Of a stretch of 64,000 nucleotides of DNA, positions 1,174 through 39,130 are shown piece after piece; position 1 is the stretch's first letter; each line of letters begins with the position of its first letter. Both the position numbers and the translations under genes were made by a program. Source of the stretch: Minisyncoccota bacterium (GTDB lineage: Bacteria; Patescibacteriota; Minisyncoccia; Phycocordibacterales; SBAW01). The stretch lies in NCBI GenBank assembly GCA_035546615.1, contig DASZWM010000005.1, positions 40,959-104,958 on the forward strand, given 5' to 3'. Under the pieces are notes generated by a model. The model was not told the DNA's origin. It was given only the letters and a program-made list of their open reading frames with translations, and searched no databases.

Positions 1174-3003
1174 ATGCGCTACTATGTATGCATGGTTCTA
1201 CACCGCTCTTTGTCCGGCCTGACGTTCATCATCAGCATATTTGTATTTCTCTTCGCGCTTGCGATATTTTTTCCGCCTTCGTTCGCCAGTGCCGGAGGAG
1301 GGGGTGGGGGAAGCGGCGGGGGAGGCGCATCCTGCCCGCCGTTCGCGACGGACCCCCCTGCGGTGGCAGCTGTGCCGGGATATAAGCCTGCAGGCCCCAC
1401 CCTCTACGAGATGCCGGGAAGCCTGGGATATTTCGACGCCGTCGTTCCCACCGTTGTAAAGCGGGCCTGGTACAACAAGATGCCGTCGGCCGGCGTATGT
1501 GGCGGGCAACAGATGGGCCTATGCATGACCGACAATTTTTCCGTTATCCAAGGAACGAAGATAGCGGCTCTCACCGCCTCTATGAATATCAAGCTCGGCA
1601 AGCCGGCGGCGTCGCAGGTGAGCATAGACGCTGTTACCAAGCCAATCAGCAATAACTGCGGACAAACTTCGACGCTCTGGTCGTACGTGCTTACCCCTTC
1701 GGCGGGGGACTTTACGATGAAGGTCCCCAAAGGCGTTTCGATAGACCTGACCTACAGCTGTCAGCCGAACCAGACCTATACCTGGGAGACGCACACCAGC
1801 TGCTTTTTGGGCATCGGCAACTGCAACGTCCGGCAGCATGCGCGCTCGTTCATGTTCGCGGACCGCGCGGTAAGCAACATTCCCTCGGGCTCTTCCGGCC
1901 TTTCAGGCACCAAGACCTTCGTGCCCCAGGAAGGCACGTCCTATTCGCTCGCCTGCGGCGGCTACCGTCCCGAGAACGGCAGCGCGACTCCTCCCACCTA
2001 CGGCTCAGCGAGCAGCGCCGGAGGCGTATGCTTCCTCGGCATCGACTGCGACAGCGGCGGCGACTTCTCCTCCTACAACGTCAAGGACTCCTCCTACCAG
2101 CAGCCCCCGCTGGCCATGTCTGTGGAGGCCTGCACCGGCGACGACGAGGTAGTCGTCAATAACGTTTGCACCCCATGCTCGCAGGTGCTCCCGGGGAGCT
2201 GGCGCATCGAGAACATATGCGTCACTTCCTTGCCCGTGGTTTCCATTGACGCGTTCGTGAACGGAAAGTCGGTGAGCACCACGACTCCCGGCATCCCGGT
2301 TACCATACGCGCCACGTACGTTTCCACCACGTCCGACCCGATAGCCGGCGCCGTCATCAATGGCGGGACCAAGGGCAAGGATACGCCGGCGTGCACCGGC
2401 TCGTGCATGCAGACTACCTATAGCCGCACCAAGGCCACCGCTACCACTACGTACACATTCACGCCGAGCGCTTCGGGCGTTTTCACCTTCTATCCCTCGG
2501 TGCAGACCAAGCTGCTTGCCGCCTGGAGCAATTATGGCGATGTGTCGAAGACGCTCATCGTGGGCAACGCGTGTCCGGCTAACGCCACGCCCTCGGGCTC
2601 GAGCTGCACGTGCAACGACAAGTACTCCGCCTATATCGGCAACGCGTGCGTGCTGACGTGCCCCGCGACCATGCATCCAAACATGAGCGGCAGCACCTGC
2701 ATCGCCAACCTTCCCACGAGCGCGATGCTGGACTTCACCGCCCTGCGCGTGCGCGAAGGCGCCAGGTCCACCCTGTCATGGACGATACGAGGCATGCAGA
2801 GCGGCATCGCCTGCGACATCGCGCCGCGCGAGCTGCTTGAGAGTCCCATGCCGGCCTACCCCGGAGGCTCCACGTGGAGCGGCGCTCTCGGGACCACCCC
2901 CATCAAGGATCCCACGCGCTATACCCTGAGCTGCACCAACGGGGAGGAGACGGTTAGCAAGACAACGACCGTGCAGCTTATCCCCGAGTACCAGGAAATC
3001 TAA
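1174..3003 (+). CDS. Secreted/membrane-anchored glycine-rich, Cys-rich surface protein (paralog 1), conserved C-terminal IPEYQEI domain
   Basis: 609-aa ORF; N-terminal hydrophobic signal/anchor, poly-Gly stretch, Cys-rich middle region homologous to the middle of the 4758-8594 protein (KVPK...SY.C.PNQ.Y.W ... CGGY.P..G ... C.PC), shared ~90-aa C-terminal domain. Confidence 0.7.
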   Translation: MRYYVCMVLHRSLSGLTFIISIFVFLFALAIFFPPSFASAGGGGGGSGGGGASCPPFATDPPAVAAVPGYKPAGPTLYEMPGSLGYFDAVVPTVVKRAWYNKMPSAGVCGGQQMGLCMTDNFSVIQGTKIAALTASMNIKLGKPAASQVSIDAVTKPISNNCGQTSTLWSYVLTPSAGDFTMKVPKGVSIDLTYSCQPNQTYTWETHTSCFLGIGNCNVRQHARSFMFADRAVSNIPSGSSGLSGTKTFVPQEGTSYSLACGGYRPENGSATPPTYGSASSAGGVCFLGIDCDSGGDFSSYNVKDSSYQQPPLAMSVEACTGDDEVVVNNVCTPCSQVLPGSWRIENICVTSLPVVSIDAFVNGKSVSTTTPGIPVTIRATYVSTTSDPIAGAVINGGTKGKDTPACTGSCMQTTYSRTKATATTTYTFTPSASGVFTFYPSVQTKLLAAWSNYGDVSKTLIVGNACPANATPSGSSCTCNDKYSAYIGNACVLTCPATMHPNMSGSTCIANLPTSAMLDFTALRVREGARSTLSWTIRGMQSGIACDIAPRELLESPMPAYPGGSTWSGALGTTPIKDPTRYTLSCTNGEETVSKTTTVQLIPEYQEI

Positions 3004-4540
3004 TGTTTTTCTTGCGCGCGTACGCGGCCAGGAAAAGCGCCGCAATGGCCGCGTAGAGCGGATAGCTTCCCGCGAGCGAGTACAGCGTCGCGCGTCGCGC
3101 TTCGGGGATCTCGAGCGTGCCCTGAAGCAGGCCCTGCTGTCTGAAGCCGAGCGACTTCACCACGGCGCCGCGTGCGTCTATGAGCGCCGACGGCCCTTCT
3201 ATAGAGGCCCGCACGGCGGGAATATTGTTCTCGGCGGCGCGGTAGCGGGCGGCCGTGAGGCTGTATGCCTCGCCGGCGTCTTCGGGCAGTATCCACTCGA
3301 ACCCCATATTAAGGAAGAAGCCGGCGCCCTTGGCGTCGCGGCGGGCAAGGCCCGCCAGGTGTATTTCCGAGCACTGGAGGCTTGCGGCGACAACGCCGCT
3401 TTCAAGCTCGACAACGCCGCTTCCGGTGCCGGCGCTCAGGGGAGCGGGCGTCGGCCCGAAGCCGAAAGAAGCGTACGCAGGCGCGTATTCTGTAAATGCG
3501 AATAAGTTGCGTTTATCGTAAGCGGCGGCCAGCGTCCCCGAATGCCAGAAGTGATATGTCTGGAAGTATTCGCCGCCCCGGTACGCGAGGTCCCAGGTAA
3601 CCACCGTGCTCGAGGCGGGCGCGTTCTCGCGCATCCAGTCATCGAGCGCCCGGCGCGGGAAGAACCGCAATTCTCCATAGCCGTCCGCGGGCGGCGCGCC
3701 CTCGTAGGCGACCTCGTTCGCCACTGCCGCCGGATAGACGACGAGTTCATTCCCTTGCGCTCCGGCTTCGCGCAGCGCCGCGGCGAGCGCCGGGAACGTG
3801 AGGCGGTCCTGGTATACGTTGGCGAACGGGAGCGCGTCGCGCGGTCCCGCCTGCACCACGGCGACGCGCATCTCCCGCGGCGCGGGAGCGCCCCCGAGGT
3901 ACCGCTCGTGCGCGAAGCACAGGAGCCATGCCGCCAGCGCGAGATATGCGGCCAGCGCGAGGGCCCGCCTGCGCTGGCCGCGCGGTGCGGCCAGCAGTTC
4001 TCCCGCGAGCGCTCCCGCGAGCGCAACCGTGAACGAGACGAGAGCCTCTCCTCCCAGCGCCGCTCCCGCGAAGGAGGCTGGCAGGAAGCCCGTCGTGTAC
4101 GCCAGCGCGCCGAGATAATAATGGCCGGTCACCCACTGGAGGGCGCTTTCAAGCGTGACATACGCTCCCGCGAACAGCGCCGCATTGAGGAGAATCGAAT
4201 CAAAGCGAAACGCGCGGTAGAGAACGATGCAGCCGCCCCCCACGCATCCGAACAGGAGCGCCCACAGGACGGGGCTGCAGTGTATGAGCTCCAGGACGAA
4301 CGGCGCGTCGGAGGGCCATGCGAAGCCCGTAAAGATAAAAGCGGAAAGCGATGCGCCGGGCAGGGCGCCGGCAATAAAACCCGCGACGAACAGGTGTTTT
4401 GCGGGGATGGGGGCCCTTCGCGCGGCGACAAAGACCACCGGCGCGAACGCCATAAGGGAGAAAAGGGGAGCGGAAAAAGGCGGCAGGGCCAGTGCAAGCA
4501 ATACTCCCGAGGCGGCCGCAAAAACAAGGCTCATGACCAT
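2978..4540 (-). CDS. lnt: Apolipoprotein N-acyltransferase (Lnt)
   Basis: Multi-TM N-terminal half plus C-terminal carbon-nitrogen hydrolase domain with Lnt motif YDKRNLFAFTEYAP and catalytic Cys (LQCSEI). The ORF as listed runs to 4846, but the likely start is MVMSLVF at ~4540. Confidence 0.75.
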   Translation of the reverse strand: MVMSLVFAAASGVLLALALPPFSAPLFSLMAFAPVVFVAARRAPIPAKHLFVAGFIAGALPGASLSAFIFTGFAWPSDAPFVLELIHCSPVLWALLFGCVGGGCIVLYRAFRFDSILLNAALFAGAYVTLESALQWVTGHYYLGALAYTTGFLPASFAGAALGGEALVSFTVALAGALAGELLAAPRGQRRRALALAAYLALAAWLLCFAHERYLGGAPAPREMRVAVVQAGPRDALPFANVYQDRLTFPALAAALREAGAQGNELVVYPAAVANEVAYEGAPPADGYGELRFFPRRALDDWMRENAPASSTVVTWDLAYRGGEYFQTYHFWHSGTLAAAYDKRNLFAFTEYAPAYASFGFGPTPAPLSAGTGSGVVELESGVVAASLQCSEIHLAGLARRDAKGAGFFLNMGFEWILPEDAGEAYSLTAARYRAAENNIPAVRASIEGPSALIDARGAVVKSLGFRQQGLLQGTLEIPEARRATLYSLAGSYPLYAAIAALFLAAYARKKNIRFPGTRG

Positions 4541-4688
4541 GACGCAAGTATACTGTCTCCGCGCTGACCCTGCTTGCGGCATCCTTGCTGCCGGCATTCG
4601 GGCAGGCGTTCGTCTATTTCTGCAAACAGTCCTCCCGCCTCGGGGGCCTGGGCCGCATCCAGCGACGGCGAGAGGAGAGCCGAAGGCG

Positions 4689-4702
4689 TTTCCTGCCGAG
4701 AG
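4689..4702 (+). repeat. Degenerate third copy of the tRNA-Arg 3'-end repeat (tttcctgccgagag ... gacaaaat)
   Basis: 13-14 nt identical to the tRNA-Arg 3' region, followed after an 8-nt insertion by gacaaaat; sits directly upstream of the second giant-protein gene. Confidence 0.45.
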
Positions 4703-4757
4703 AACGGATTTTGTGGACAAAATATTATGTAGCGAATTCTCGGGGTAGTATAGAAGA

Positions 4758-7700
4758 GTGAGCTTCAAGTGCTTGAAGAAATATTTTTTTCTCCTTCCGC
4801 TGCTTGTTTTTATAGGTCCTGCGCCCTTTGTCATGGCCGCCCCCACGTTTCAAGTGGGGCCGATTTACCTCACTACGACAAGCGCGTCAAACCAAACCTG
4901 GCCCGTGCCTTCTGACTGGAACAATGCGAGCAACATCGTGCAGGTTATTGCGGCTGGAGGAGGCGGGGGCGGAGTCGCCAGCAACACGACGGGGAGCGGC
5001 GGGGGCGGCGGGGGCGGCGGATATTCAAAATCGACAAATATTACCCTTTCCGGTTCATCGGTAACGTATCGTCTTGCGCCCGGCGGCGCCGGCGGAGGAT
5101 CGTCGGCTGCGGTTGCCGGAGGCGATGCATGGTTTAACGGCACCACATGCGCGGCTGCCTCCGTCTGCGCGAAAGGCGGAGGGGCAGGGGGCGCAGGCAC
5201 AGGCGGAGGGGGAGGCGCCGCGGGCGCAGGCGGGCCGGCTACAGGAGGAGTCGCGTCAGGCACCGGCTCAATAAAAAATAACGGCGGCGCAGGCGGGGCA
5301 GGCACAGGTGTTTCCGCCGGCGGCGGAGGGGGCGGCGCGGGCGGCCCAAACGCCGCCGGCGGGACTGGCAATCGCACCAATGGCGGGCAAGGGGACGGCA
5401 CTGCAGGCGGCGCCGGCGGGATGACAAGCCTCATCAGGGCCGCGTCTGCTGGAAGCCCAGGAACTGAATTTTCATCCTCGCCCGCGTACGGGTCCGGCGG
5501 CGGCGGCGGAGGTTCTAGATACGCAGCGGACGCGGCAGCGGGAGGCACGTACGGCGCGGGCGGCGGCGGAGCTTTTGCTGCCTCCTCCGGTACCCTCCGC
5601 CGCGGAGGAGCCGGCGCTCCCGGGCTTATTGTGATTAATTACAGCGCACCTCTTACCGTTTCCATTACCGCGCCGACCAACAGCGGCAACGCATGTATTG
5701 GCACGCCCGGTGCATTTACCATCAGCCGCAACGGGCCGGCAACTTGGCCTGCAGTGCCGGTTGATCTTATATACGGCGGAAGCGGGAGCACCGCGGCTGC
5801 GGGGATAGACTACTCCGCTGCTGCGACAACGGTCACCATACCGGCAAATACCATGTCTATAACGCTTCCCATTACCGCGCTTCAAAAAACATCGGGCGGC
5901 AGCACTACGCTCAAGGCGACCATAGCCGCATCCTCGGCCTATTCCGTCGGTACGCCAGCGAGCGCCACAATAGTTATTAACAATGGGACTCCGGCGATTG
6001 AGACAGTCGCCCCCTACACGATCGCTCCTTTTGCTGCTTACCCATTGCCCTACAATGGCTACATTTATCACCAAAATGGCGGTTCCGGCTACACTAATCC
6101 ATTTGCCACTCCCGCAAGCATTCTTAATACATGGATCAGCAATAGCCCTTCGCCCCAACTATGCGGCGCCAACGGCGGTACGGCCGGTATATCGCTTCCT
6201 AGTGACACGGCACAGGGCGTATGCATGGGTCCTAATTTCTCCGGCACTGTAGCAGGCACCCGGGTTGCGGTCCTGCAGGCGGTAGCGCAGACTGCAGGCA
6301 TTCCTCCGGTTAATGTCGGCCTCGATCTCACGAATGTCAAAAAAACAAATCCTTGCAACACTTCAACAACGCACTGGGCGTACGCTACTGCGCCGACACA
6401 AAATACGCCCGCCGCGACGCTTAAGGTCCCTAAATACACACCGGTCCAGTTCTCTTATCAATGTTTGCCGAACCAGAATTATGTTTGGTTTAACGCCGCA
6501 TGCCAAGGCGCTTACATTATTAGCTGCCTTAGCTGGACGCTTGTTACCGATGGCGACCTCAATGTCCAGACAGCGGATCGAGCGTGGTACAAGGGCACTG
6601 AAACGGCGAACCTTATCGACAGTTCTACGCAGACATTCAGCAATTCGCAGAGCGTTACGCTCCAATGCGGCGGCTATCAGCCTCAAGAAGGGATTCCCGC
6701 AAACGGCGGTTCTCCGCCAGCTGCATCCTCCGGCACTGCTCCTACTGGAGGCAGCTACACGGTATACGGTATGCAGAATCCTTCCTATCGGCAGCCGCAA
6801 ATACAAGTTGACGTACAGACATGCTCGGATCCTACCGCTATCGTACAGGGCGGTGCGTGCGTTCCGTGCAATACGGTAACTTCGGGCAGTTATCGTTCGG
6901 GTAATACCTGCGTCTTGTATCCGCCCCCGACGGCGACTATCCAAGCCAATAACGCCGGTTTTCAAGCGGCAGACAGCAGCGGCAACAAGAACGGAAAATT
7001 AGTTTCAGTTGGGGCGGGACAGCAAGTAACTGTAGCCGCCACGTATGCTGGCAGTACCAATCAAACTCAAAAAACCGTCTTTATTACTGCCGCAGGTTCT
7101 GGCGTATGGACCGTGCCAAGCGATTGGAACAGCGCCAATAACAGCATCGAGGTTATAGGCGGCGGCGGCACGGCGGCTTTTACGGGAGGCCGAGGCGGCG
7201 GGGGCGGCGGCGGCGCGTATTCAAAAAAGACTAATATTTCCCTCACGCCTGGCGCGCCTGTGACATATAGGGTGGGTCAAGGTGCGGCCCAAGGGAGTCC
7301 GGCCGCTCCGGGTGACGATACTTTTTTTAACCGGACCGCCGGTTCCTCAAATACCTGCGCCGATACGGTTTCGGTATGTGCCAAGGGCGGAAACAGCGGC
7401 AATGGCAACAATGGTGGAGCTGGAGGCGCTGCGAGTGGCGGCGTCGGCACTGTTAAATATTCGGGGGGCGCCGGCGCTTACGGCGATAATAACAATTCCG
7501 GCAACGGCGGCGGCGCAGGAGGTCCCAACGGGAATGGTCAAGCGGGAGACAGTGGCGGCGCAGGGGATGCGGGGCTTGGCGGCGCGGGCAGCGGTTGTGG
7601 CAACCCACCTGCGGCTGGGGGGAATGGTGCCGAGTGGATTGCTACCAATGTGTGGAGTGGCACTGCATACACGGGCGCAACGCCGACGGGCGGCTCCGGC

Positions 7701-8594
7701 GGGGGCGGCGGGTGCCGCTCATCCATTGCCGCTCCGGGCGGTAACGGCGGTTTGTATGGCGGCGGAGGCGGCTCCGGCGGAGGCAGCCAGAGCAATGAAG
7801 GAGTCGGGGCTCAGGGCATTATCGTAATCAAATATACCTCAACCGGCGACCCTCTTGAGGCTACCGCTATCAATTGCGACTCGGGATGCGATTCACAGGA
7901 CGGTGATACTGTTAACTGTAACCTTGTTGCTCCTCCCAATCCGCCGGCGGCTCCTGATCCAAACTGTTGGCGGAAACCCGATGCGACAAAGACGTATACC
8001 TTTACGCCGGCATCAGCAGACGCGGGAAAGACGTTTGTATTTTCCGCACAGGCAAAAACTTTTAACTACATCAACTATAACGGCTACGCTACCGTGCAGG
8101 TGCGGGTATGCCCGATCGGTCAGGGAACGGACGGCAACGGCGGATGTATTGCGGACGCATGCACCAACAATATCGTATTCCCAGGCAGCCAGACGACAGT
8201 ACCCGCAGGATGTACGGGTAATCCGGACAATACGTGCAGCGTGCCCACCGGCTATGCGTTCAACGGCGCGGCCTGCGTCCCTTCAGCTCCGTCGGTTCCG
8301 ACCCTTAGCCAAAACTCATTTACCGCCACCCGCGTACGTATGGGGGCGGCATCGACGCTTTCATGGAACATACCGGGTATGGCGAGCGGCATTACATGCG
8401 ATATCAGTCCTGCGGATAAATTGCAGAGCCCGATGCCTGCCTGGACAAGCGGCTCTACTTGGATCGGCTCGGTACAGACGACCAGCATATACGGGCCCAC
8501 CAAATATACGCTCACGTGCACTAACAGCACGACCGACCCGCCGGCCACCCGCAGCGTCATCGTCAACATCATCCCTGCGTATCAGGAGATATAG
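4758..8594 (+). CDS. Giant secreted glycine-rich surface protein (paralog 2) with two Gly-rich beta-solenoid-like modules, Cys-rich middle region and conserved C-terminal IPAYQEI domain
   Basis: 1278-aa ORF with GTG start; signal peptide MSFKCLKKYFFLLPLLVFIGPAPFVMA; Gly-rich module (TWPVPSDWN..NI.VI..GGGGG...GGGGGGYSK.TNI.L....VTYR...G...G.IVI.Y) duplicated at ~4896-5643 and ~7100-7840; middle and C-terminal regions homologous to the 1174-3003 protein. Confidence 0.75.
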   Translation: MSFKCLKKYFFLLPLLVFIGPAPFVMAAPTFQVGPIYLTTTSASNQTWPVPSDWNNASNIVQVIAAGGGGGGVASNTTGSGGGGGGGGYSKSTNITLSGSSVTYRLAPGGAGGGSSAAVAGGDAWFNGTTCAAASVCAKGGGAGGAGTGGGGGAAGAGGPATGGVASGTGSIKNNGGAGGAGTGVSAGGGGGGAGGPNAAGGTGNRTNGGQGDGTAGGAGGMTSLIRAASAGSPGTEFSSSPAYGSGGGGGGSRYAADAAAGGTYGAGGGGAFAASSGTLRRGGAGAPGLIVINYSAPLTVSITAPTNSGNACIGTPGAFTISRNGPATWPAVPVDLIYGGSGSTAAAGIDYSAAATTVTIPANTMSITLPITALQKTSGGSTTLKATIAASSAYSVGTPASATIVINNGTPAIETVAPYTIAPFAAYPLPYNGYIYHQNGGSGYTNPFATPASILNTWISNSPSPQLCGANGGTAGISLPSDTAQGVCMGPNFSGTVAGTRVAVLQAVAQTAGIPPVNVGLDLTNVKKTNPCNTSTTHWAYATAPTQNTPAATLKVPKYTPVQFSYQCLPNQNYVWFNAACQGAYIISCLSWTLVTDGDLNVQTADRAWYKGTETANLIDSSTQTFSNSQSVTLQCGGYQPQEGIPANGGSPPAASSGTAPTGGSYTVYGMQNPSYRQPQIQVDVQTCSDPTAIVQGGACVPCNTVTSGSYRSGNTCVLYPPPTATIQANNAGFQAADSSGNKNGKLVSVGAGQQVTVAATYAGSTNQTQKTVFITAAGSGVWTVPSDWNSANNSIEVIGGGGTAAFTGGRGGGGGGGAYSKKTNISLTPGAPVTYRVGQGAAQGSPAAPGDDTFFNRTAGSSNTCADTVSVCAKGGNSGNGNNGGAGGAASGGVGTVKYSGGAGAYGDNNNSGNGGGAGGPNGNGQAGDSGGAGDAGLGGAGSGCGNPPAAGGNGAEWIATNVWSGTAYTGATPTGGSGGGGGCRSSIAAPGGNGGLYGGGGGSGGGSQSNEGVGAQGIIVIKYTSTGDPLEATAINCDSGCDSQDGDTVNCNLVAPPNPPAAPDPNCWRKPDATKTYTFTPASADAGKTFVFSAQAKTFNYINYNGYATVQVRVCPIGQGTDGNGGCIADACTNNIVFPGSQTTVPAGCTGNPDNTCSVPTGYAFNGAACVPSAPSVPTLSQNSFTATRVRMGAASTLSWNIPGMASGITCDISPADKLQSPMPAWTSGSTWIGSVQTTSIYGPTKYTLTCTNSTTDPPATRSVIVNIIPAYQEI

Positions 8595-8634
8595 CGGGAG
8601 GAGGAATTTTGCTCCGCTTAGCACACAAGCGCAA

Positions 8635-9296: not shown

Positions 9297-10109
9297 ATGA
9301 AGACAATCAAACTAAACGAGGATGCGAATATCCCCGTGCTCGGCCTGGGCACGTGGCAGCTGACGGGGGATGCGTGCACGGAAGCCGTCCGCTACGCGCT
9401 TGAGCTCGGCTACACGCATATCGATACCGCCGATGTGTATGGTAATCATGCGGAAGTGGCGAGCGGCGCTAAAGCCTCCGGCGTCGCACGGGAGAAGTTC
9501 TTCCTTACCACCAAGGTGTGGCGCACCGACTTGGCGCACGACCCGCTTGTGGAGAGCGCGGACCGCTTTCTTGAAGAGCTCGCTACCGACTATATCGACC
9601 TCCTCCTTATTCACTGGCCTAACAGCGAGATTCCTGTCGAGGCCAGTCTTAGGGCGATGGAGGAGCTTAAGCGCGCCGGAAAGGTGCGCGCGATAGGCGT
9701 TTCTAACTTTACTGTTCATCACCTTAAGGACGCACTTGAAGCCGGGGTTGAAATAACCAACAACCAAGTAGAGATACGTCCCGCCTTCGCGCAAAAAGAA
9801 CTGCGTGATTTCTGTGCTTCCAAGGATATTTCCGTAACCGCGTACTCGAGCCTGCGCGGCGGTGCTAATGAATTGCCGCTTATCGTGGAATTGGCAGGGA
9901 AGTACGGCAAGACTGCTTCGCAGATAATCCTCAACTGGGTTGTGGCTCGCGGCATGATAGCGATACCTAAGAGCTCGCACCCGGAGCGCATTAAAGAGAA
10001 TTTCGAGTCAGTAGATTTCGAAATGGAAGAAGCGGACCTCGCGCGCATAGATGCGCTGCCGGAAGGGAAGCGGGTTAATACGCCGGCCTTCGGGGAATTC
10101 GATTATTGA
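9297..10109 (+). CDS. Aldo/keto reductase (2,5-diketo-D-gluconate reductase-like)
   Basis: 270-aa ORF; AKR signatures LGLGTWQ, IDTADVYGNH, LLLIHWP, IGVSNF. Confidence 0.85.
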   Translation: MKTIKLNEDANIPVLGLGTWQLTGDACTEAVRYALELGYTHIDTADVYGNHAEVASGAKASGVAREKFFLTTKVWRTDLAHDPLVESADRFLEELATDYIDLLLIHWPNSEIPVEASLRAMEELKRAGKVRAIGVSNFTVHHLKDALEAGVEITNNQVEIRPAFAQKELRDFCASKDISVTAYSSLRGGANELPLIVELAGKYGKTASQIILNWVVARGMIAIPKSSHPERIKENFESVDFEMEEADLARIDALPEGKRVNTPAFGEFDY

Positions 10110-10583
10110 GAAAAGTTTTTGCCGATGGCATTCCACGGCAGTTTCATGCCTGATTCCGGAAACTTGTCGAGAATCCATTGTACGTAAGTATTACTGTTGG
10201 GACCACGCAAGCCGTATTTCTCTTTAAAAGGATATTGATCTACAGAAGAAGTAATACAGTCAGCCATTCGCTCCGCAGTGGAACCATCTGCACCTTCGAC
10301 AGTATCTACTATTGCAGAATTCCAGTGGAAGTAATGAACAAAAGCGAATGTCTGTATCCCGTCGGTAGGGGAAAGTAAGTCTGCGTCGAGATGGCCCCAG
10401 CTTTTGTCGCGAATCTGTCGTCCGAATCCTATTTCCCAGCGTGATATAGCGCCTTTTTATTCACGACGAACCAAGGATGGATAGCAAAGTTAAAAGGGAT
10501 ACAGGCAGGACATGCAAAAAGAAATACCTGATATAAGTCTTTCTTTAAGAGTTTCTGGAACTCGGCTTCGGTCATATTTCCAA
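10104..10583 (-). pseudogene. Frameshifted hypothetical gene (two overlapping frames joined at an A5 run)
   Basis: Minus strand: frame a reads MTEAEFQKLLKKDLYQVFLFACPACIPFNFAIHPWFVVNKKALYHAGK* and frame b reads ...KGAISRWEIGFGRQIRDKSWGHLDADLL...NSNTYVQWILDKFPESGMKLPWNAIGKNFSQ*. The frames overlap by ~12 codons at the homopolymer aaaaa (plus ttttt 10454-10458), and a 1-nt shift there would give one ~160-aa protein. The region is AT-rich. Confidence 0.45.
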
Positions 10584-10587
10584 ACTT

Positions 10588-10675
10588 TGGCGGAGGGGGT
10601 GAGATTCGAACTCACGGTACCTTGCGGTACTCTTGTTTTCAAGACAAGTGCACTCGGCCTCTATGCGACCCCTCC
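10588..10675 (-). tRNA. tRNA-Ser (anticodon TGA), CCA encoded
   Basis: 88-nt class-II tRNA: acceptor ggagggg/cccctcc, anticodon stem cttgt/acaag with loop ctTGAaa, long variable arm taccgcaaggtacc, T-arm gtgag-ttcgaat-ctcac, 3' gCCA encoded. Confidence 0.8.
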
Positions 10676-11155
10676 CTGGCGATTTTGTATCTTACCACTG
10701 TACCAGTTATTTTCTAGGTAATGTTCCTCTGAGTGACAATTTGGACAAAGTAGTTCCAGGTTATCCAGCGTATTGTGTTGCCGGTTTCTGTCTTTGTGAT
10801 GTACGTTTAATATCTCATACCTTGCATATCCGCATCGTTCGCAAATGGGGCCTCGCAGTTTCAACAGACGAAGTTTCAAGCCTCGCTGGTATACAACTTT
10901 GTCCTTAGGCGCTCGACCTTTGTATTTTATTCCTGCACGGTTGGTATTGGCGCAGCCTCTGCTACATGTATTTTTGTTTGCACTAGAGAGAATAGGTTTA
11001 CCGCAGACAACACAAGGGTGTTCTTTTCGAGTAGCTAGTCCATAACAGGTTTGACTGCAAAATACTCGACCTTGTTTAATTTGACCCGGTCGTCTATAGA
11101 TTGGTTTGCCACAAACTGTGCATGCAGTATTGGGATTTCTTTTATACTCATCCAC
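10661..11155 (-). CDS. HNH endonuclease with Cys4 zinc-ribbon motifs
   Basis: 164-aa ORF; HNH motif NVHHKDRNRQHNTLDNLELLCPNCHSEEH plus three CxxC pairs. AT-rich; the 3' end overlaps the tRNA-Ser 5' end by ~15 nt. Confidence 0.75.
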   Translation of the reverse strand: MDEYKRNPNTACTVCGKPIYRRPGQIKQGRVFCSQTCYGLATRKEHPCVVCGKPILSSANKNTCSRGCANTNRAGIKYKGRAPKDKVVYQRGLKLRLLKLRGPICERCGYARYEILNVHHKDRNRQHNTLDNLELLCPNCHSEEHYLENNWYSGKIQNRQGGVA

Positions 11156-24366: not shown

Positions 24367-24408
24367 AATATCGCCCGTCCCGGAACCCGGGACGGGCGAT
24401 ATTTTTTA
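24367..24408. terminator. Bidirectional terminator between convergent genes
   Basis: 16-bp perfect hairpin atatcgcccgtcccgg-aac-ccgggacgggcgatat followed by tttttt. Confidence 0.75.
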
Positions 24409-26520
24409 GACGGCTGCAACAGGATTTCTTTCGACGATATCCTGGGTGCCGCGCTTGTAGTTGAAGCGGTCTTCGCTTGAGTCTATGTGGAGTATTAATC
24501 CTTCGCTCTTCAATTCCCGAAGCATAAGCGCGCCGATGTTCTGGGAAATAACGCGGAGCGTTGGATGTACGGAAATGCCCGAACGCAGCTCGACGACAAA
24601 GGCTAGCGCGGGCAGGTCGCCGGTAATGCGGCAGGCAACCTGGTATCCCATCGGGACATAATACTGGGCTAGGGTAGGGGACAGATTCAGCCTCTCGAGG
24701 CCTGCAACGTAGCGGGCGAGAAAAGCTTTCGCCTCGTCCGCGAGCTGTTGCGGTACCTGGCTGAAGTACCATTCGCCGAACCCGTGCTTCGTCGTCAGAA
24801 GCGGCATCCGCTGGGTGATGGAACGATGCCGGTGCAGGTCGCGGAACGAGCCGAAGTCGAGCGGAAACGAGAACTGCATCCCTCCGGCTTCCGCAAGGAA
24901 TTTCGGCAGCTCCGCTTTTGCGGGGCGGCTGTCCAGGATATGGCGATGCTTCTGGAGCAGTCGCGGTTCCACGGTATTCCGCAGCAGAAGAACATTTCCG
25001 TATCCGGCCTTCGAGCCATTAAGGGTCGGTTCTGCTTCAGCGGAATAGTAGTACGCATTCTGCATCCACTCTTCGACGTATTCTTCCTGTGCAGAGTAGC
25101 GCTTAGCGAAGCCGGAATTCGGATACTTCTCCATTAGCGCTTCGCCCACCGCATTTGCGATATCGCGCACTTCTGCAAGCGGATGATGGCGCAGGCGCAG
25201 GAGATGGTCGGAAGCGTGCCGCAGCTCGGTATGCCACGCGAGGTTCGTTGCGGCGCCGGCAGGCAGGAATCCCCGCATGATATCGAACGCGCGGGCATTG
25301 ATGGCCTTCTGCCAAACCTTCTCGTCCTCATCAGTTTGGCGCGGATGGCGCTTGGCGAGCTCTTCCTTCATGGTTTCGAGCCCATTCAGATGGAATGCGC
25401 GCAGCGATTCAAGGAGCTCTGCGCCCTCTGGGGAGTTGTGCGGATTGCCGAACGCCTGTTTGGAGAAGTCGATGTAACGAGTCGAGGATTCCTGCCCATT
25501 GTAGAGCTGGGAGTCTTGTACCGCTTTCGCCGCGAGCATCGACACTCCTTCTATAAAGATGGTCGCCGTGCCGTCATCGCCGATGGATTTGTCGCCGTAA
25601 CCGACATAGTAGGTCTGCATGAAATCTTGGGCGCCCCGCTTGGCAAGCCTGATCAGGTGCGCATCTATGCCGCCCAGGGAGCGCGAATGAAGTGCTTGAA
25701 GCATTGCATCTTCCTCAGCATTGATGATAGCGCCGGTGTCGAGTACGACTACCTGCCCGTTTCCTGGGAGCGGCTTGCGTACGTGTTTCAGGTCTTCGTA
25801 TTTTGTAGCAGTTCCTTTTTGTACTTGTTCCTGCGCGGGTGCGGCGCGTTGTCCGATGTCGCGATCAAGGTAGAGGCGGGGGAGCATCTGCTCAGGGGTC
25901 CAGCTGCTTTTTACCTCTTCAAGGTTCGTGCTGACCTGATATTTGCCGCTCTTGGTGTAATCGGACTGTAGAATAGGCCCGGTCTCGAAGAAGATGATCT
26001 GCGCGATGCGGCGGCCGACCACAAGCGGAATGATGTAATTCTTGGAGTTGTTGGTTATCTCCATCGTCCAGCGGTTGACGTATCCGACGTCGCCCCAGCC
26101 GGCACATTTGCACACTTCTATGAAGTTGCGGCCCATGCTTGAGCGCGCCTTCATCATCGTCGTGATATGGTCGCGCCCGCCGATGAACTCGTTCGTATGC
26201 GCGAGGATGGTTTCGCCGGGCCGCAGGATGATGACCTTGTCCTCCGGGCTGATGCCGTCCCACTCAAAGTTATATTTTTCGAACGCTTCCTTCGCGGGTA
26301 CCGCCCGCTCCACCTTAGAGGCGCCCCACACATGCTCCATGTGCGCGCGGCTCCAGATGTTGTAGAGGCTGTGATTGTACTTGGTCGGCTGCTCGCGGAA
26401 GAAATGCTCCCCGAGCGTCACGTCGTAGGAAGAAGTGGCAAGATTTTCCCGCTTGAACGGCTCTATAATGACGGAGCCTTCCTGCATCGCTTCGAGGATT
26501 TTCTTGTCCGATAGTGCCAT
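24406..26520 (-). CDS. Fusion protein: dCTP deaminase-like domain + two tandem ThyX (flavin-dependent thymidylate synthase) domains
   Basis: 704-aa ORF. Residues 1-190 are Dcd/dUTPase-fold (LSDKKILEAMQEGSVIIEP; KARSSMGRNFIEV...GWGDVGYVNRWTMEITNNS). Residues ~230-480 are ThyX-like and keep the S.RY motif (ESSTRYIDF) but have QDSQ in place of RHR. Residues ~480-704 are ThyX-like with the RHR motif (FRDLHRHRSITQ) but no S.RY. Both halves keep the ThyX C-terminal helix pattern (AR..LP....T..W..N.R.L.HFL.LR). Confidence 0.6.
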   Translation of the reverse strand: MALSDKKILEAMQEGSVIIEPFKRENLATSSYDVTLGEHFFREQPTKYNHSLYNIWSRAHMEHVWGASKVERAVPAKEAFEKYNFEWDGISPEDKVIILRPGETILAHTNEFIGGRDHITTMMKARSSMGRNFIEVCKCAGWGDVGYVNRWTMEITNNSKNYIIPLVVGRRIAQIIFFETGPILQSDYTKSGKYQVSTNLEEVKSSWTPEQMLPRLYLDRDIGQRAAPAQEQVQKGTATKYEDLKHVRKPLPGNGQVVVLDTGAIINAEEDAMLQALHSRSLGGIDAHLIRLAKRGAQDFMQTYYVGYGDKSIGDDGTATIFIEGVSMLAAKAVQDSQLYNGQESSTRYIDFSKQAFGNPHNSPEGAELLESLRAFHLNGLETMKEELAKRHPRQTDEDEKVWQKAINARAFDIMRGFLPAGAATNLAWHTELRHASDHLLRLRHHPLAEVRDIANAVGEALMEKYPNSGFAKRYSAQEEYVEEWMQNAYYYSAEAEPTLNGSKAGYGNVLLLRNTVEPRLLQKHRHILDSRPAKAELPKFLAEAGGMQFSFPLDFGSFRDLHRHRSITQRMPLLTTKHGFGEWYFSQVPQQLADEAKAFLARYVAGLERLNLSPTLAQYYVPMGYQVACRITGDLPALAFVVELRSGISVHPTLRVISQNIGALMLRELKSEGLILHIDSSEDRFNYKRGTQDIVERNPVAAV

Positions 26521-33100: not shown

Positions 33101-36100
33101 TTGGATATGTCCGAAGTGGGGAAGTCAGAAGTGGCCAAGCGCGAGGAGAAAGTACTCGCTTTTTGGAAAGAACAGCAGATATTCGAGCGCAGCGTTGGGA
33201 AGCGCGCGCCGCGCGGCGAATTCACCTTTTATGACGGCCCGCCGTTCGCAACCGGCCTGCCGCACCACGGCAGCCTCCTGTCCTCGATAATTAAGGACGT
33301 CGTTCCGCGCTATAAGACCATGCGCGGCTACCGCGTCCCGCGCCGCTGGGGCTGGGACTGCCACGGGCTTCCCATCGAGAACCTGGTCGAAAAGAAGCTC
33401 GGCCTCAAGACAAAGAAAGACATTCTTTCCATCGGCATCGATACGTTTAACGAGGAGGCGCGCTCGACCGTGCTCCAATACGTGCACGACTGGGAGCAGT
33501 ACGTGGACCGCGTGGGCCGCTGGGTGGATTTCAGGAACTCGTACAAGACGATGGACAACTCGTATATCGAGACCGTCTGGTGGGCGCTCAAGGAAATGCA
33601 GGACAAGAAGCTTTTGTACGAGGGCCGGAAGGTGCTCATGTACTGCCCGCACTGCGAAACGCCGCTTGCCAAGGCCGAAATTGCCGCCGACAATACCTAC
33701 AAGGATATTACCGAGGAGGCCGTTACCATCAAGTTCAAGCTTAAGTATCCGCAGAAGTTCGGCCTTCCCGAAAATACGTATCTGCTTGCGTGGACGACGA
33801 CCCCGTGGACGCTTCCGGGCAACGTGGGGCTCGCGGTCGGGCCTGACATCCCATACGTGCTTGTGGAGCAAAACGGCGAGTACCTCGTGCTTGCGCGCGA
33901 CCTGAAAGGGCAGGCGTCCGGCACGGTCGCGGGAGAACTGCTCGGCCGGCAGATGGTCGGCGCGGACTACGAGCCGCTCTATCGCATCAATGCGGTAGAG
34001 GCGCACAAAGGAAGGAAGCATCAGGTGCTTGCGGCGGACTTCGTCACTACGACCGAAGGCACGGGCATCGTGCACACCGCCGTCATGTACGGCGAGGACG
34101 ACTTCGCGCTCGGGCAAAAAGAGGGCTTGCCGATGGTGCAGCTCCTCAGCCAGAACGGCACGTACAACGACAACGCGCCGGAGTTCGTGCGCGGCGAGTA
34201 TATAAAGAAGGCGGAGAAGCTCATCAAGGAAGACCTCGAGGAAAAGGGCCTGCTCTTTTCCCGCGCGAACCACACGCACTCCTACCCGCACTGCTGGCGC
34301 TGCGGCACCGCGCTCATCTACAACGCCGTCGCGTCCTGGTTCATCAATATTCAGAAGGTGAAGGCGAAGATGCTTTCGGAGAACCAGAAGATAAACTGGG
34401 TGCCCGCGTACCTGCGCGACGGGCGGTTCAGGAACATCCTTGAGAACGCGCCGGATTGGACGATATCGCGCAACCGCTTCTGGGCCTCTCCCTTGCCGAT
34501 ATGGAAGGAGAAGGGCGGCAAGAACCTGATGGTCGTGGGTTCTGTCGAGGAATTGCTGAAAAAGACGAAGCGCTCCGGCAACAAGTACTTCGTGATGCGC
34601 CACGGAGAGGCGCGTCACAATGTGGAAGATGCCATGGACGGCGCCGGAAGGCCGGACAACCACCTGACCGACGCGGGGAGAGAATATGTGCGCGCGGCGG
34701 CGCAGGAGTTTAAAAAAAGGCAGGAGATAGACCTTATCGTTATGTCTCCGTTCGTGCGCACCCGCGAAACTGCCGCTATCGTCCAGGAAGTATTCGGTCT
34801 TCCCGATTCTGCCGTGGCCGTCGATAACCGCCTCCATGAAATAGGGTTCGGCGAGTTCGAAGGCAGGCCGCTCAGGGAGTGGGCGGAATTCTTCGGTTCG
34901 CTTGAGAACAGGTTCTTAAAGACTCCCGAAGGGGGAGAGCCGTTTAGCGACGTGCGCCGGCGCGTGGGGGATTTCCTGTTCGAGATAGAGCGCCGGTATG
35001 TGGGCAAGAATATCCTCATCGTGACCCACAAGGGGCCGGGCTGGCTGCTTAATGCGGTGGCAAAGCGCTACTCCGCCGCGCAGATAGCCAATGAAGAGGA
35101 ATATTCGCCCTTCATGCGCAACGACAAGGCTCAGCGCATATACGAGCTTCCGTTCACGCCCTTCCCGCACAATAAGGACTACGAGATGGACCTGCACCGC
35201 CCGTATATCGACGCGATAACGCTTGTGGACGCTCAAGGCCGCGGCTACGAGCGCATTCCGGAGGTCATCGACTGCTGGGTCGAGTCCGGCGCCATGCCGT
35301 ACGCGAGCAATCACTACCCCTTTAAGAACAAGAACCGCTTCAATCCGGCGCGCTTCTTCGGCTTGTGGCCGAAAGGTTTCCCGGCGCAGTTCATCGCCGA
35401 GTACATCGGGCAGACGCGCACCTGGTTCTACTACATGCTTGCGGTCAGCACCGTTCTCTCGGGACGGGCCTCATTCCAGAACGTGGTATCCACCGGCAAC
35501 CTGCTTGCGGCGGACGGCGCGAAACTTTCCAAATCCAAGGGCAACTACACCGACCCGCTCAACATCATGAACCAGTTCGGCGCCGACGCGTACCGCTTCT
35601 ACCTCATGGGCTCGGTCGTGATGAACAGCGAGGACCTCCAGTTCCGCGACGAGGACGTGCGCGAGGCCAACAACCGCGTGCTCGGCATACTTTGGAACTG
35701 CTACAAGTTCTTCGAGCTCTACAAAGACGAGCGCGACCCCGCGATACGCGCTCAGGATAGCTCGCACCCGCTTGATCGCTGGGTACTGTCGCTTCTTAAC
35801 AAAACCACTGCCGCAGTAACGGCAGCGATGGAAGCGTACGACACGCCGGGGGCATGCAAGGCCCTGCGCGCGTTCGTCGACGACTACTCCACCTGGTATG
35901 TGCGCCGCTCGCGCGACCGCGTGAAGGGCGAGGATGAGGCTGACAAGCAGTTCGCGCTCGCGACCCAGTACGAGGTGCTTTTAACGCTTTCGCAATTGTT
36001 CGCGCCCATCACGCCGTATATTTCCGAAAGCATCTACCGCTCAGCCGGCGGCGAAGAAGACAGTGTGCACCTGAGCGAGTGGCCGGAAGCCGGAGCCGTG

Positions 36101-36532
36101 GACGAGAAATTGCTTGCCGACATGGAGGTCGTGCGCAAGACCGCGTCGATGGCGCTGGAGGCGCGCGAGCGCGCCGGCATCAAGATACGCCAGCCGCTCG
36201 GGAAGCTCTCCGCAAAGTCCCTGCCCGCCGACTTGGGGCTTCGCCAGCTTATCGCCGAAGAAGTGAATGTGAAGGAGATCATTGAAGATGTCGTGATGGA
36301 AGATGACATATCGCTCGACACCACGATGACGCCGGAGTTGCGCGATGAGGGCATTATGCGCACGCTCATGCGCCGCGTGCAGGAATGGCGCAAGGACGAG
36401 CAGCTCACCATTGCCGACAGGCCGGACTACACGCTCGTCGTTACCGCCGAAGAAAATCCCGTGGCGCAGAAGTACCGCGAAGAGATACGGAAAGCGACCG
36501 GCCTCAATAGCCTCGAAATAACGGTAGAATAG
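33101..36532 (+). CDS. ileS: Isoleucyl-tRNA synthetase (type 2) with an inserted histidine-phosphatase (PGM-family) domain
   Basis: 1143-aa ORF; IleS type-2 motifs FYDGPPFATGLPHHG, WDCHGLPIE, WTISRNRFWASPLPIW, KMSKS as KLSKSKGN. An internal ~200-aa segment (nt ~34580-35170) carries the exact PGM signature VMRHGEARHN and a second catalytic His in IVTHKGPG. Confidence 0.8.
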   Translation: MDMSEVGKSEVAKREEKVLAFWKEQQIFERSVGKRAPRGEFTFYDGPPFATGLPHHGSLLSSIIKDVVPRYKTMRGYRVPRRWGWDCHGLPIENLVEKKLGLKTKKDILSIGIDTFNEEARSTVLQYVHDWEQYVDRVGRWVDFRNSYKTMDNSYIETVWWALKEMQDKKLLYEGRKVLMYCPHCETPLAKAEIAADNTYKDITEEAVTIKFKLKYPQKFGLPENTYLLAWTTTPWTLPGNVGLAVGPDIPYVLVEQNGEYLVLARDLKGQASGTVAGELLGRQMVGADYEPLYRINAVEAHKGRKHQVLAADFVTTTEGTGIVHTAVMYGEDDFALGQKEGLPMVQLLSQNGTYNDNAPEFVRGEYIKKAEKLIKEDLEEKGLLFSRANHTHSYPHCWRCGTALIYNAVASWFINIQKVKAKMLSENQKINWVPAYLRDGRFRNILENAPDWTISRNRFWASPLPIWKEKGGKNLMVVGSVEELLKKTKRSGNKYFVMRHGEARHNVEDAMDGAGRPDNHLTDAGREYVRAAAQEFKKRQEIDLIVMSPFVRTRETAAIVQEVFGLPDSAVAVDNRLHEIGFGEFEGRPLREWAEFFGSLENRFLKTPEGGEPFSDVRRRVGDFLFEIERRYVGKNILIVTHKGPGWLLNAVAKRYSAAQIANEEEYSPFMRNDKAQRIYELPFTPFPHNKDYEMDLHRPYIDAITLVDAQGRGYERIPEVIDCWVESGAMPYASNHYPFKNKNRFNPARFFGLWPKGFPAQFIAEYIGQTRTWFYYMLAVSTVLSGRASFQNVVSTGNLLAADGAKLSKSKGNYTDPLNIMNQFGADAYRFYLMGSVVMNSEDLQFRDEDVREANNRVLGILWNCYKFFELYKDERDPAIRAQDSSHPLDRWVLSLLNKTTAAVTAAMEAYDTPGACKALRAFVDDYSTWYVRRSRDRVKGEDEADKQFALATQYEVLLTLSQLFAPITPYISESIYRSAGGEEDSVHLSEWPEAGAVDEKLLADMEVVRKTASMALEARERAGIKIRQPLGKLSAKSLPADLGLRQLIAEEVNVKEIIEDVVMEDDISLDTTMTPELRDEGIMRTLMRRVQEWRKDEQLTIADRPDYTLVVTAEENPVAQKYREEIRKATGLNSLEITVE

Positions 36533-37153: not shown

Positions 37154-39130
37154 ATGGCACGGGAGGAAAAGGGAGGGGTCGAGGGTCTTAAGCGGCGCCT
37201 TTACACGCGCAAGCCCGCTCCGAAAACCGGCGACGCACGAACGCCGCTGTCGCCCTCGGAAACGCACATTCCGACCTCGTGGAGCGAGATACATGCGCCG
37301 GGAGAGGGAGCGGAACCCGCAATGCCCGAGGAGCCCGCGGCTCCGGCCGCGCCCATTACGTCCATAGCCCCGGCGGGCCTTGAAATGTCCAGAAAACGCA
37401 TGACATTCGCCACAAAGTTCTTTTTAGGCTCCATCGCCTTTTTTGTGGTGGCCGCGGGCATTGCGGCCGCGCTCTTCCTCGGAGGCGTCAACACTACTTC
37501 GCCGCAGAATATTTCCATATCGATAGACGCGCCGTCCTTAATAGACGGCGGCAAGGAGGCGCAGTTCAACATCACCATTACCAACCGCAACACCACGTCG
37601 CTCAACGAAGCGGACCTGGTCATCGATTACCCGGACGGCGCGCGCGCGGTGAACGACCCGACGCAGGCACTGACCCACGAGCGCATTTCGATAGGCACTA
37701 TCAAATCAGGCGAGCAGATAAAGCGCACGGCTTCGGCGCTCTTGTACGGGCAGGAAGGCGCGCAGCAGAAATTAGTCGCGCGGCTCGAATATAATCTTTC
37801 GGGCTCCAACGCCGTGTTCGAGAAATCCGCGGAGACGTCGTTCACCATCGGCTCGGCACCGGTATCGCTCACCGTGGACGCTCCGGAGCGGGTTATCGCG
37901 GGCGACCAGTTCGCGATGGACATAACCGTGCGCTCAAACGCAGCCGCTCCCGTCAACAATGTCACCGTGGAGGCGCAGTACCCGTTCGGATATTCCGTCG
38001 CGGCAGCAACGCCCTCAGCCGCAGCAGGCGGTTCGCTCTGGCGCCTGGGCACGTTGGCGCCCGGCGCTTCAAAAAAGATACACATCACCGGCGCCATAAC
38101 CGCCTCCGACGGAGACGACCGCGTATTCAAGTTCCTGATAGGCTCCAACGCCGACCAGACCGACGTGCATGTGCGCGTGCCGTTCCTAACGCTGCCGCAG
38201 ACCATAAGCGTCGAGCGGCCGTTCATTAGCGGCTCGGTTTCCGTGGAAGGCAAAACGGGCCAGAGCATTTCCGTCGCGGCGGGAAAGACATTGCGCGGCA
38301 CGGTGGAGTGGGAGAACAATCTCGACGACTCCATCTCCGACCTTGAGCTCAGTCTTTCCTTCAGCGGCCCCGCGCTCGATAAAAGCTCCGTGAACGCGCA
38401 GAACGGCTTCTACCAGTCGGGGAACTCCACCATAATCTGGACGAAGGACCGCAGCGGGGAGCTCGAGTCGGTAGCGCCCGGCGCCACGGGCTCCTACCAA
38501 TTCTCCTTCGGTACGCTTCCGCCGGGCTCGTCCGGCACGCTCATCACTAATCCGACCGTAACGCTCAACCTCACTGTGCGCGCGGTGCGCCAGGGCTCAA
38601 GCGGCTCGCCTGAGACAATCACTTCAGCGGCGACCGCCAAGGTAACGCTCGCATCCCAGCTTTCAATAGGCGCGGAATCGTCGCACTCGGGCGGGCCGTT
38701 CCAGAACGGCGGGCCGGTGCCGCCGCGCGCCGAAACGCCGACCTCCTACACGATTACCTGGACGGTAAAGAACTCCGCCAATGCAGTTGCCAATGCTGTG
38801 GCTTCCGCCGTGCTGCCGCCGTACGTCACCTTCGTCACCGCGCAGTCGGGAAGCGGCATCACGTACGACTCCGGCAGCCGCACCGTGCGCTGGAACCTGG
38901 GCGACGTGAAGGCGGGCGTGGGCTATACCACCGCCGCGCGCCAGGCCGCTTTCCAGGTGACGCTCACGCCAAGCGCCTCGCAGGTAGACTCCGTGCCTGC
39001 CCTTACGGGCCCGGCCAGCATTACCGGCCAGGACCGCTTCGCGCAGGTTACGGTGGAGGGCCAGGCGGAGTCTGTCAGTACCCATACCAGCGACGGCGGC
39101 AGCGGCAATGACGTTGTACAGCCGAAGTAA
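37154..39130 (+). CDS. Large membrane-anchored surface protein with repeated beta-sandwich (DUF11/CARDB-like) modules
   Basis: 658-aa ORF; Pro/Ala-rich N-terminus, single TM (FFLGSIAFFVVAAGIAAALFL), then repeated ~100-aa Ser/Thr/Val-rich modules (NITITNRNTTSL..., VTVEAQYPFGY..., NLTVRAV...). Confidence 0.5.
   Translation: MAREEKGGVEGLKRRLYTRKPAPKTGDARTPLSPSETHIPTSWSEIHAPGEGAEPAMPEEPAAPAAPITSIAPAGLEMSRKRMTFATKFFLGSIAFFVVAAGIAAALFLGGVNTTSPQNISISIDAPSLIDGGKEAQFNITITNRNTTSLNEADLVIDYPDGARAVNDPTQALTHERISIGTIKSGEQIKRTASALLYGQEGAQQKLVARLEYNLSGSNAVFEKSAETSFTIGSAPVSLTVDAPERVIAGDQFAMDITVRSNAAAPVNNVTVEAQYPFGYSVAAATPSAAAGGSLWRLGTLAPGASKKIHITGAITASDGDDRVFKFLIGSNADQTDVHVRVPFLTLPQTISVERPFISGSVSVEGKTGQSISVAAGKTLRGTVEWENNLDDSISDLELSLSFSGPALDKSSVNAQNGFYQSGNSTIIWTKDRSGELESVAPGATGSYQFSFGTLPPGSSGTLITNPTVTLNLTVRAVRQGSSGSPETITSAATAKVTLASQLSIGAESSHSGGPFQNGGPVPPRAETPTSYTITWTVKNSANAVANAVASAVLPPYVTFVTAQSGSGITYDSGSRTVRWNLGDVKAGVGYTTAARQAAFQVTLTPSASQVDSVPALTGPASITGQDRFAQVTVEGQAESVSTHTSDGGSGNDVVQPK

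Follow-up and report, generated by a model that had tools for sequence, protein, structure and literature searches.

Two neighbouring secreted proteins that stop in the same few residues may share that ending by common descent, or they may carry a dedicated domain that acts at the carboxy-terminus. This question is raised by a 64,000-nucleotide stretch of the Minisyncoccota bacterium contig DASZWM010000005.1 (hereafter the window), a piece of bacterial chromosome that holds housekeeping genes, seven tRNA genes and the beginning of a 23S rRNA gene. An initial annotation of this DNA described the two proteins, here named pA (609 aa) and pB (1,278 aa; coordinates in Table 1), as giant proteins with a common C-terminal domain of about 90 residues that ends IP[EA]YQEI and might serve surface anchoring or sorting. 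At these lengths neither protein is giant, and the shared ending itself was borne out. The last ~95-100 residues of pA and pB appear, on comparison with other proteins, to constitute an undescribed, Patescibacteria-restricted C-terminal domain family, and we estimate at about 45% the probability that this family is a lineage-specific surface-retention or sorting domain.

Alignment of the last 95 residues of pA and pB gave 56% identity with 54 invariant columns, and in both genes a stop codon directly follows the final Ile, of ...IPEYQEI in pA and of ...IPAYQEI in pB (translation of 2716-3006 and 8307-8597). When a hidden Markov model (HMM) of the domain was run against the six-frame translation of the window, only these two open reading frames (ORFs) were matched (E = 3e-53 and 2e-50; next best 0.13). 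The segments first annotated, 2716-3003 and 8307-8594, lie in the domain, but its start is about five residues further upstream, at a conserved LP[TS] boundary (2701 and 8292). BLASTP of the full-length proteins showed them to be paralogous along their whole length, with pA residues 77-388 aligning to pB residues 436-769 at 28% identity and pA 420-609 to pB 1073-1278 at 38% identity; the C-terminal 209 residues gave E = 2e-30. Because of this paralogy, a simple duplication would, on the window data alone, be sufficient to explain the shared ends, and the spacing of the two genes, 1.7 kb, agrees with it. Recent gene conversion between the two copies was considered and rejected, as their DNA has diverged considerably (a three-way alignment that included the pB ortholog described below had a mean column identity of 74%).

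An exhaustive HMMER search of 1.84 billion protein representatives with a three-sequence profile, the kind of search that the initial annotation had called for, returned 200 cluster representatives with E ≤ 1e-3, of which 39 had E ≤ 1e-10. Confinement of the domain to the two paralogs, which the annotation had named as fatal to its proposal, is thus not what was found; over 100 clusters of unrelated architecture carry both domain and tail. This distribution refutes the idea that the common end merely reflects the paralogy of pA and pB, to which we now give next to no probability. In a re-scored set of 155 sequences, consisting of the listed HMMER hits and the pA orthologs, the domain ended within three residues of the C-terminus in 113, and its carriers ranged from 84 to 3,098 aa in length. 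The other 42 matches were tandem immunoglobulin (Ig)-like repeats in other proteins, in which the tail was absent. Word-indexed protein searches with short profiles found one match each time, a figure that reflects the word index and not the size of the family; a scan of a genome collection found one locus (L001), and a metagenome locus scan from six close sequences found six. Orthologs of pA were 48-59% identical to it and every one ended [LI][IV]P.[YF]QEI, while a pB ortholog with 88% identity and the ending IPNYQEI was present in the GTDB Paceibacterota genome DASZWN01 (L001). All members that bear a source name came from Patescibacteria or Paceibacterota, and the sizes of carrier contigs, 0.45-0.75 Mb, are in keeping with this group. 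The protein pA itself is deposited at NCBI as VHD55_02355, a hypothetical protein from a Candidatus Paceibacterota metagenome-assembled genome (100% match; P0002), with a start at 1192 that gives 603 aa. Neither window terminus matched a Pfam or NCBIfam family at E ≤ 1, and Pfam searches of 10 family termini yielded only three matches, each in a single member and at E values of 0.05-0.5. No PDB sequence matched the domain, and no description of the domain or of its tail motif was found in the literature.

The 113 terminal members share a last-ten-residue consensus of V-x-[LIV]-[VIL]-P-x-[FYV]-[QK]-E-[ILF]-COOH. With the last residue counted as position 0, Pro occupies position -5 in 109 members and Glu position -1 in 106, and the final residue is Ile, Leu or Phe in 100; in about 12% of the tails the last residue is K, R, Q or N. 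In an alignment of 97 sequences, C36, C76 and P95 were each present in 97/97, E99 in 96/97 and W25 in 95/97, placing the Pro and Glu of the tail at the same level of conservation as the two Cys, whose conservation had been noted from the window pair; R14 (80/97) and R16 (78/97) were also conserved. Both pA and pB (E ~1e-33 on the 97-sequence HMM) have W25, C36, C76, P95 and E99, an N-terminal export signal and a chain that stops one residue past the Glu, with no terminal transmembrane (TM) segment or LPXTG, as first annotated. Related Ig-like copies, 91 in all, lie upstream of the domain in 51 of 111 carriers, and P-x-Phi-x-E follows none of them (0/91), so the tail-bearing copy is always the last in the chain and never internal. 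Since no internal copy carries it, the tail, as judged from sequence, belongs to the chain end and not to the fold. A regular expression for the tail, applied to all ORFs of 80 aa or more from the window and 13 fetched loci, matched the carriers only, apart from one chance match in an aldo-keto reductase. Computed over the 97 sequences, mutual information between the tail and the rest of the domain was uninformative, with weak signals only, to gappy loop residues 42-51. Cleavage by a sortase at the LP[TS] boundary was rejected because the fourth position is not a Thr and there is no Gly after it.

Known carboxylate-dependent C-terminal ligands include the YxF end read in the DegS/outer-membrane-protein system and the substrates of Prc/Ctp. 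With its Glu held exactly one residue from the C-terminus and, as in such ligands, a hydrophobic last residue in most members, the tail could be a recognition peptide for a protease or transpeptidase that binds C-termini, of the PDZ type or another, and that processes, covalently attaches or monitors the proteins. We regard this as quite improbable. In nine neighbourhoods of carriers, no PDZ or Ctp gene was adjacent, and one Trypsin-family gene was present only in L002/L003, about 4 kb upstream; moreover, the polar or basic endings of some tails do not fit such a ligand, and the tail is predicted to be ordered.

That prediction comes from AlphaFold2, which, given the 97-sequence alignment, modelled the domain with a mean predicted local distance difference test score (pLDDT) of 93.6, a predicted template modelling score (pTM) of 0.81 and a mean pLDDT of 86 over the last ten residues; with a 10-sequence alignment the corresponding values were 83, 0.74 and 71. 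In the 97-sequence model of the pB domain, six strands (residues 10-12, 20-28, 34-39, 56-65, 70-78 and 85-91) form an Ig-like beta-sandwich, so that the beta-sandwich suspected in the initial annotation is now predicted with confidence, and the residues past 93 are non-strand yet confidently placed, none falling under a pLDDT of 70. Structural neighbours of the model were generic Ig domains only. As modelled, then, the Ig-like sandwich is ordinary as a fold; the domain stands out by its conserved tail and by its place at the terminus. The annotation had held that an ordinary Ig-like spacer with a buried tail would speak against its proposal; the fold is indeed ordinary, but a spacer it is not, given a tail-bearing copy that always comes last.

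An ordered tail at the end of an Ig-like array can also be read structurally. The domain would in that case simply cap an Ig-like stalk, the tail folding back to stabilise the end or to block carboxypeptidases, with no role in sorting or anchoring; the Glu and the terminal carboxylate would perhaps pair with the R-V-R conserved in the first strands, a contact that is conjectural. Because related tail-less copies stand upstream in nearly half of the carriers, the domain derives from stalk repeats, and the confident placement of the tail, the conservation of R14 and R16 and the lack of a partner gene in the nine neighbourhoods all fit a cap. Conservation of the Pro and Glu at the level of a disulfide, over more than 100 clusters at ≤50% identity, is not obviously needed for capping, however, and a cap leaves unexplained both the recruitment of the domain to unrelated passengers that have no Ig stalk and its restriction to one lineage. 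We consider this account doubtful, though of appreciable weight.

The passengers were surveyed in 60 full-length carriers. Pfam identified EPTP in 11, Gly_rich_2 in 7, Laminin_G_3 in 6 and Calx-beta in 5, and further found Kelch, NPCBM_assoc, Reprolysin, PKD, pentaxin, FG-GAP, RCC1, CARDB, M10/M11 peptidases and F5/8 type C; NCBIfam added M6 and serralysin-type metalloproteases, and had no model for the C-terminal domain in any of the 60. Among carriers whose N-terminus looks complete, most start with a signal peptide or a signal anchor. Several carriers can occur in one genome: there are two in the window, two adjacent ones in L009, and two with unrelated passengers, the pB-like P0011 and the EPTP/Calx-beta protein P0023, on one 651-kb contig. 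About 25 carriers (P0023, P0025, P0034, P0036, P0043, P0062, P0100, P0119 and P0150 among them; neither pA nor pB) have in common an N-terminal leader of approximately LSxxELxxLAxxCGGxAxLxLxAVxLSG within the first ~45 residues, made up of a short cytoplasmic stretch and then a TM segment, and no Pfam or NCBIfam family matched the leader of these ~25. By analogy, proteins of this class may bear the leader as a second signature at the N-terminus, the pairing of leader and C-terminal domain resembling that of YSIRK signal peptides with LPXTG. A separate observation concerns P0064, P0071 and P0081, in which tail-less Ig-like repeats are followed by a different, Cys-rich C-terminal module of ~45 residues whose sequence closes with ...[WY]-[RI]-E-V and two further residues. 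It is a candidate second C-terminal module, one with an aromatic-x-Glu-hydrophobic ending.

If the leader anchors its carriers in the membrane, the domain could form the far end of a fibre, where a hypervariable loop beside the tail would bind a ligand on host cells or in the environment. Loop residues 37-70, between strands three and four (window 8397-8500; L001 ~10100-10215), are the most divergent part between pB orthologs that are otherwise 91% identical, with at least two types of loop, which suggests module swapping or diversifying selection. One type, L.S.MPAW, was seen in pB and pA of the window, and the other, GDIT.LW.G..NPFTG, in the pB orthologs of L001 and L002. A host-attached life would also suit such a tip, and cultivated Patescibacteria are attached to host cells (PMC11623550). 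A distal binding tip is nonetheless unlikely as the general function of the domain. The signal peptides of pA and pB look cleavable, so that these proteins would be lost from the cell if nothing else tethered them; it is hard to see why proteases, lectins and propellers would share a single tip; and the invariance of tail and framework argues for a constant partner.

Comparison with known C-terminal systems places the domain between two kinds of precedent. The C-terminal domain (CTD) of the Bacteroidota type IX secretion system (T9SS; TIGR04183 and TIGR04131) is likewise an Ig-like beta-sandwich of ~80-100 residues at the extreme C-terminus, is borne by many unrelated Sec-exported carriers of one lineage, and has no TM segment. 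It differs in that the CTD itself has neither the conserved Cys pair nor the terminal P-x-Phi-x-E-Phi motif, and in that the hosts here are Patescibacteria, not Bacteroidota. To our knowledge, published cryo-electron microscopy has Patescibacteria without an outer membrane. No T9SS CTD HMM matched the window termini (E ≤ 1) or the 60 full-length carriers, the one T9SS-named match being to an M6-like protease model in a passenger, and no T9SS gene was found among the annotated ORFs of the window. The LPXTG/sortase, PEP-CTERM/exosortase, GlyGly-CTERM/rhombosortase and MYXO-CTERM/myxosortase systems also have a position-locked C-terminal signature on diverse secreted proteins, restricted to lineages and with several carriers per genome, but their signal is a short motif, a TM helix and a basic cluster, in contrast to a folded domain of ~95 residues; all 113 terminal members end at the tail, with no hydrophobic segment. 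The initial exclusion of sortase, PEP-CTERM and T9SS signals accordingly stands. The best functional analogy is to SLH, CWB2, WxL, LysM, GW and dockerin-cohesin modules, which are folded, often C-terminal, attached to varied enzymes and adhesins, and hold proteins on a wall, S-layer or scaffold without a membrane anchor; unlike the present domain, they do not have an Ig-like fold and none relies on a motif at the very carboxy-terminus. No Pfam match to these modules, the dockerin-cohesin pair included, was obtained: SLH, WxL, CWB2, LysM and GW were absent from pA and pB and from the 25 commonest among the 37 Pfam families matched by the 60 carriers. Bacterial Ig-like repeats such as PKD, Big and Ig_7-type stalks belong to the same fold class, and tail-less relatives of the domain occur in tandem in the same and in other proteins, but no Pfam Ig-like family scores above its gathering threshold on the domain and only the terminal copy has a tail. 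By analogy, the T9SS CTD is closest in form, and retention modules of the SLH, WxL and dockerin type are closest in likely mechanism for a bacterium that has no outer membrane. In effect, the domain would serve these single-membrane bacteria as SLH or WxL modules, dockerins or the T9SS CTD serve their own hosts.

We infer a surface-retention or sorting role because the domain is locked to the terminus, rides on unrelated exported passengers, recurs within genomes, is restricted to one lineage, and conserves its signature as it does its disulfide. The anatomy comprises the LP[TS] boundary, a predicted Ig-like beta-sandwich with one conserved Cys pair, and a short tail, P-x-[FYV]-[QK]-E-[ILF], that obligatorily ends the polypeptide. 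The carriers would be exported by Sec through ordinary N-terminal signals, and the domain would then hold or place them on the surface by binding a common envelope component, such as an S-layer, a wall polymer or a receptor protein, with the invariant Pro and Glu and the free terminal carboxylate forming part of the recognised surface. In a narrower and more speculative form, which we hold to be doubtful, the tail on its Ig-like carrier would be the address label of a Patescibacteria-specific surface sorting or attachment pathway, in which a receptor or enzyme reads the free C-terminus.

Several findings weigh against a retention or sorting role. The initial annotation had suggested that a dedicated protease or transporter might co-occur with the domain, and its proposal of an anchoring module or recognition tag, favoured by the export signals, the unrelated passengers, the single lineage and the want of a Pfam or NCBIfam model, falls short in this respect, as no protease, transporter or receptor gene recurred beside the carriers in the nine neighbourhoods. 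The domain is also the fastest-diverging part between orthologs (60% identity, compared to 91% for the rest), which is unusual for a binder of a conserved self component. The ordered tail fits docking on its own domain as well as it fits presentation to a partner, and the ~25 carriers with an N-terminal signal anchor may be bound to the membrane already, in which case the domain would be a distal end and not an anchor. Finally, the restriction to one lineage is based on the few members that bear a source name.

Patescibacteria, or the candidate phyla radiation, account for a large share of bacterial diversity, are mostly uncultivated and attached to other cells, and have a surface organisation that is barely understood. 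The domain marks more than 100 families of exported proteins, among them lectins, propellers, proteases and glycine-rich proteins, and a single HMM flags candidate surface proteins in whichever Patescibacteria genome is examined. The PEP-CTERM, GlyGly-CTERM and MYXO-CTERM signals were paired with their sortases by phylogenetic profiling, and the same HMM provides a profile with which a binding partner or processing enzyme can be sought. Should the tail be read through its free carboxylate, bacteria would have a type of sorting signal without earlier description; were the tail an address label, it would represent a new class of prokaryotic sorting signal that has no membrane-spanning segment, in bacteria without an outer membrane, and much of the episymbiont surface proteome would be defined by it.

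Table 1. Coordinates of pA, pB, their parts and the intervening gene in the window
Feature	Position	Strand	Basis and remarks
pA, 609-aa secreted protein, shorter paralog	1174..3003	+	ORF list, translation; Sec signal peptide
pA signal peptide	1174..1293	+	Hydrophobic core, A-S-A↓G site of signal-peptidase-I type, then Gly-rich linker; read from sequence
pA C-terminal Ig-like domain, last 100 aa from LPT boundary	2701..3000	+	Cys codons 2812-2814 and 2932-2934; HMM match reaches last residue
pA tail P-E-Y-Q-E-I with TAA stop	2983..3003	+	Translation
Lnt-like gene (LNT_N + CN_hydrolase) between pA and pB	2978..4846	-	Pfam, NCBIfam; neighbour, nothing ties it to the domain
pB, 1,278-aa secreted protein, pA-like core with two glycine-rich (PF21722) segments	4758..8594	+	ORF list, translation, BLASTP, Pfam
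pB signal peptide (…PFVMA↓APTF)	4758..4838	+	Sequence; conserved in L001 ortholog
pB glycine-rich domain 1 (Pfam Gly_rich_2, aa 42-295)	4881..5642	+	Pfam
pB glycine-rich second copy	~7104-7835	+	Placed by repeated WxVPSDWN...GIIVIKY frame
pB C-terminal Ig-like domain, last 100 aa	8292..8591	+	Cys codons 8397-8399 and 8517-8519; contains the segment first annotated
pB tail P-A-Y-Q-E-I with TAG stop	8574..8594	+	Translation

The cleavage sites in Table 1 were placed by inspection of the sequences and not with a dedicated predictor; AxA sites equivalent to that of pA are present in its orthologs. The gene between pA and pB encodes an Lnt-like protein that scores 78.6 bits against TIGR00546, under the cutoff of 132.9, and its start is probably internal to the ORF, which would give about 510-525 aa as in the orthologs. 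It is odd in itself that a bacterium presumed to have a single membrane should encode an Lnt-like N-acyltransferase. The possibility that pA is a lipoprotein substrate of the adjoining enzyme was rejected, since the conserved Cys lies 15-25 residues past the AxA site and there is no lipobox. The gene order RuvA-S20-pA-Lnt-pB is kept in three other assemblies (L002, L003 and L004), whose pB-like proteins measure 1,579 and 1,824 aa and end in VPQVQEI and VPVYQEI, while in L001 and L013 the pB-like gene is present and the pA-Lnt pair is missing; pA and the Lnt-like gene are thus either present together (the window, L002/L003 and L004) or missing together (L001 and L013). Other carriers lie amid ribosomal, repair and glycolytic genes.

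Elsewhere in the window, a complete histidine-phosphatase domain (His_Phos_1, aa 497-659, E = 3e-32) interrupts the isoleucyl-tRNA synthetase (1,143 aa; 33101-36532, +) midway through the catalytic domain, and in a 704-aa ORF (24406-26520, -) a dCTP deaminase-like domain (aa 3-179) is fused to one of ThyX-type thymidylate synthase (aa 301-468). Beside tRNA genes, in a stretch of low GC content (47%, compared to ~57%), an ORF for a small HNH endonuclease (10661-11155, -) overlaps tRNA-Ser (10588-10675); it may be a mobile-element remnant. Two more envelope proteins without the C-terminal domain are encoded at 37154-39130 (+) and 52608-54659 (+); one has DUF11 and an N-terminal TM anchor at ~aa 85-110, and the other, of 683 aa, has a PG_binding_1 domain, so the genome also has other routes for holding proteins at the surface.

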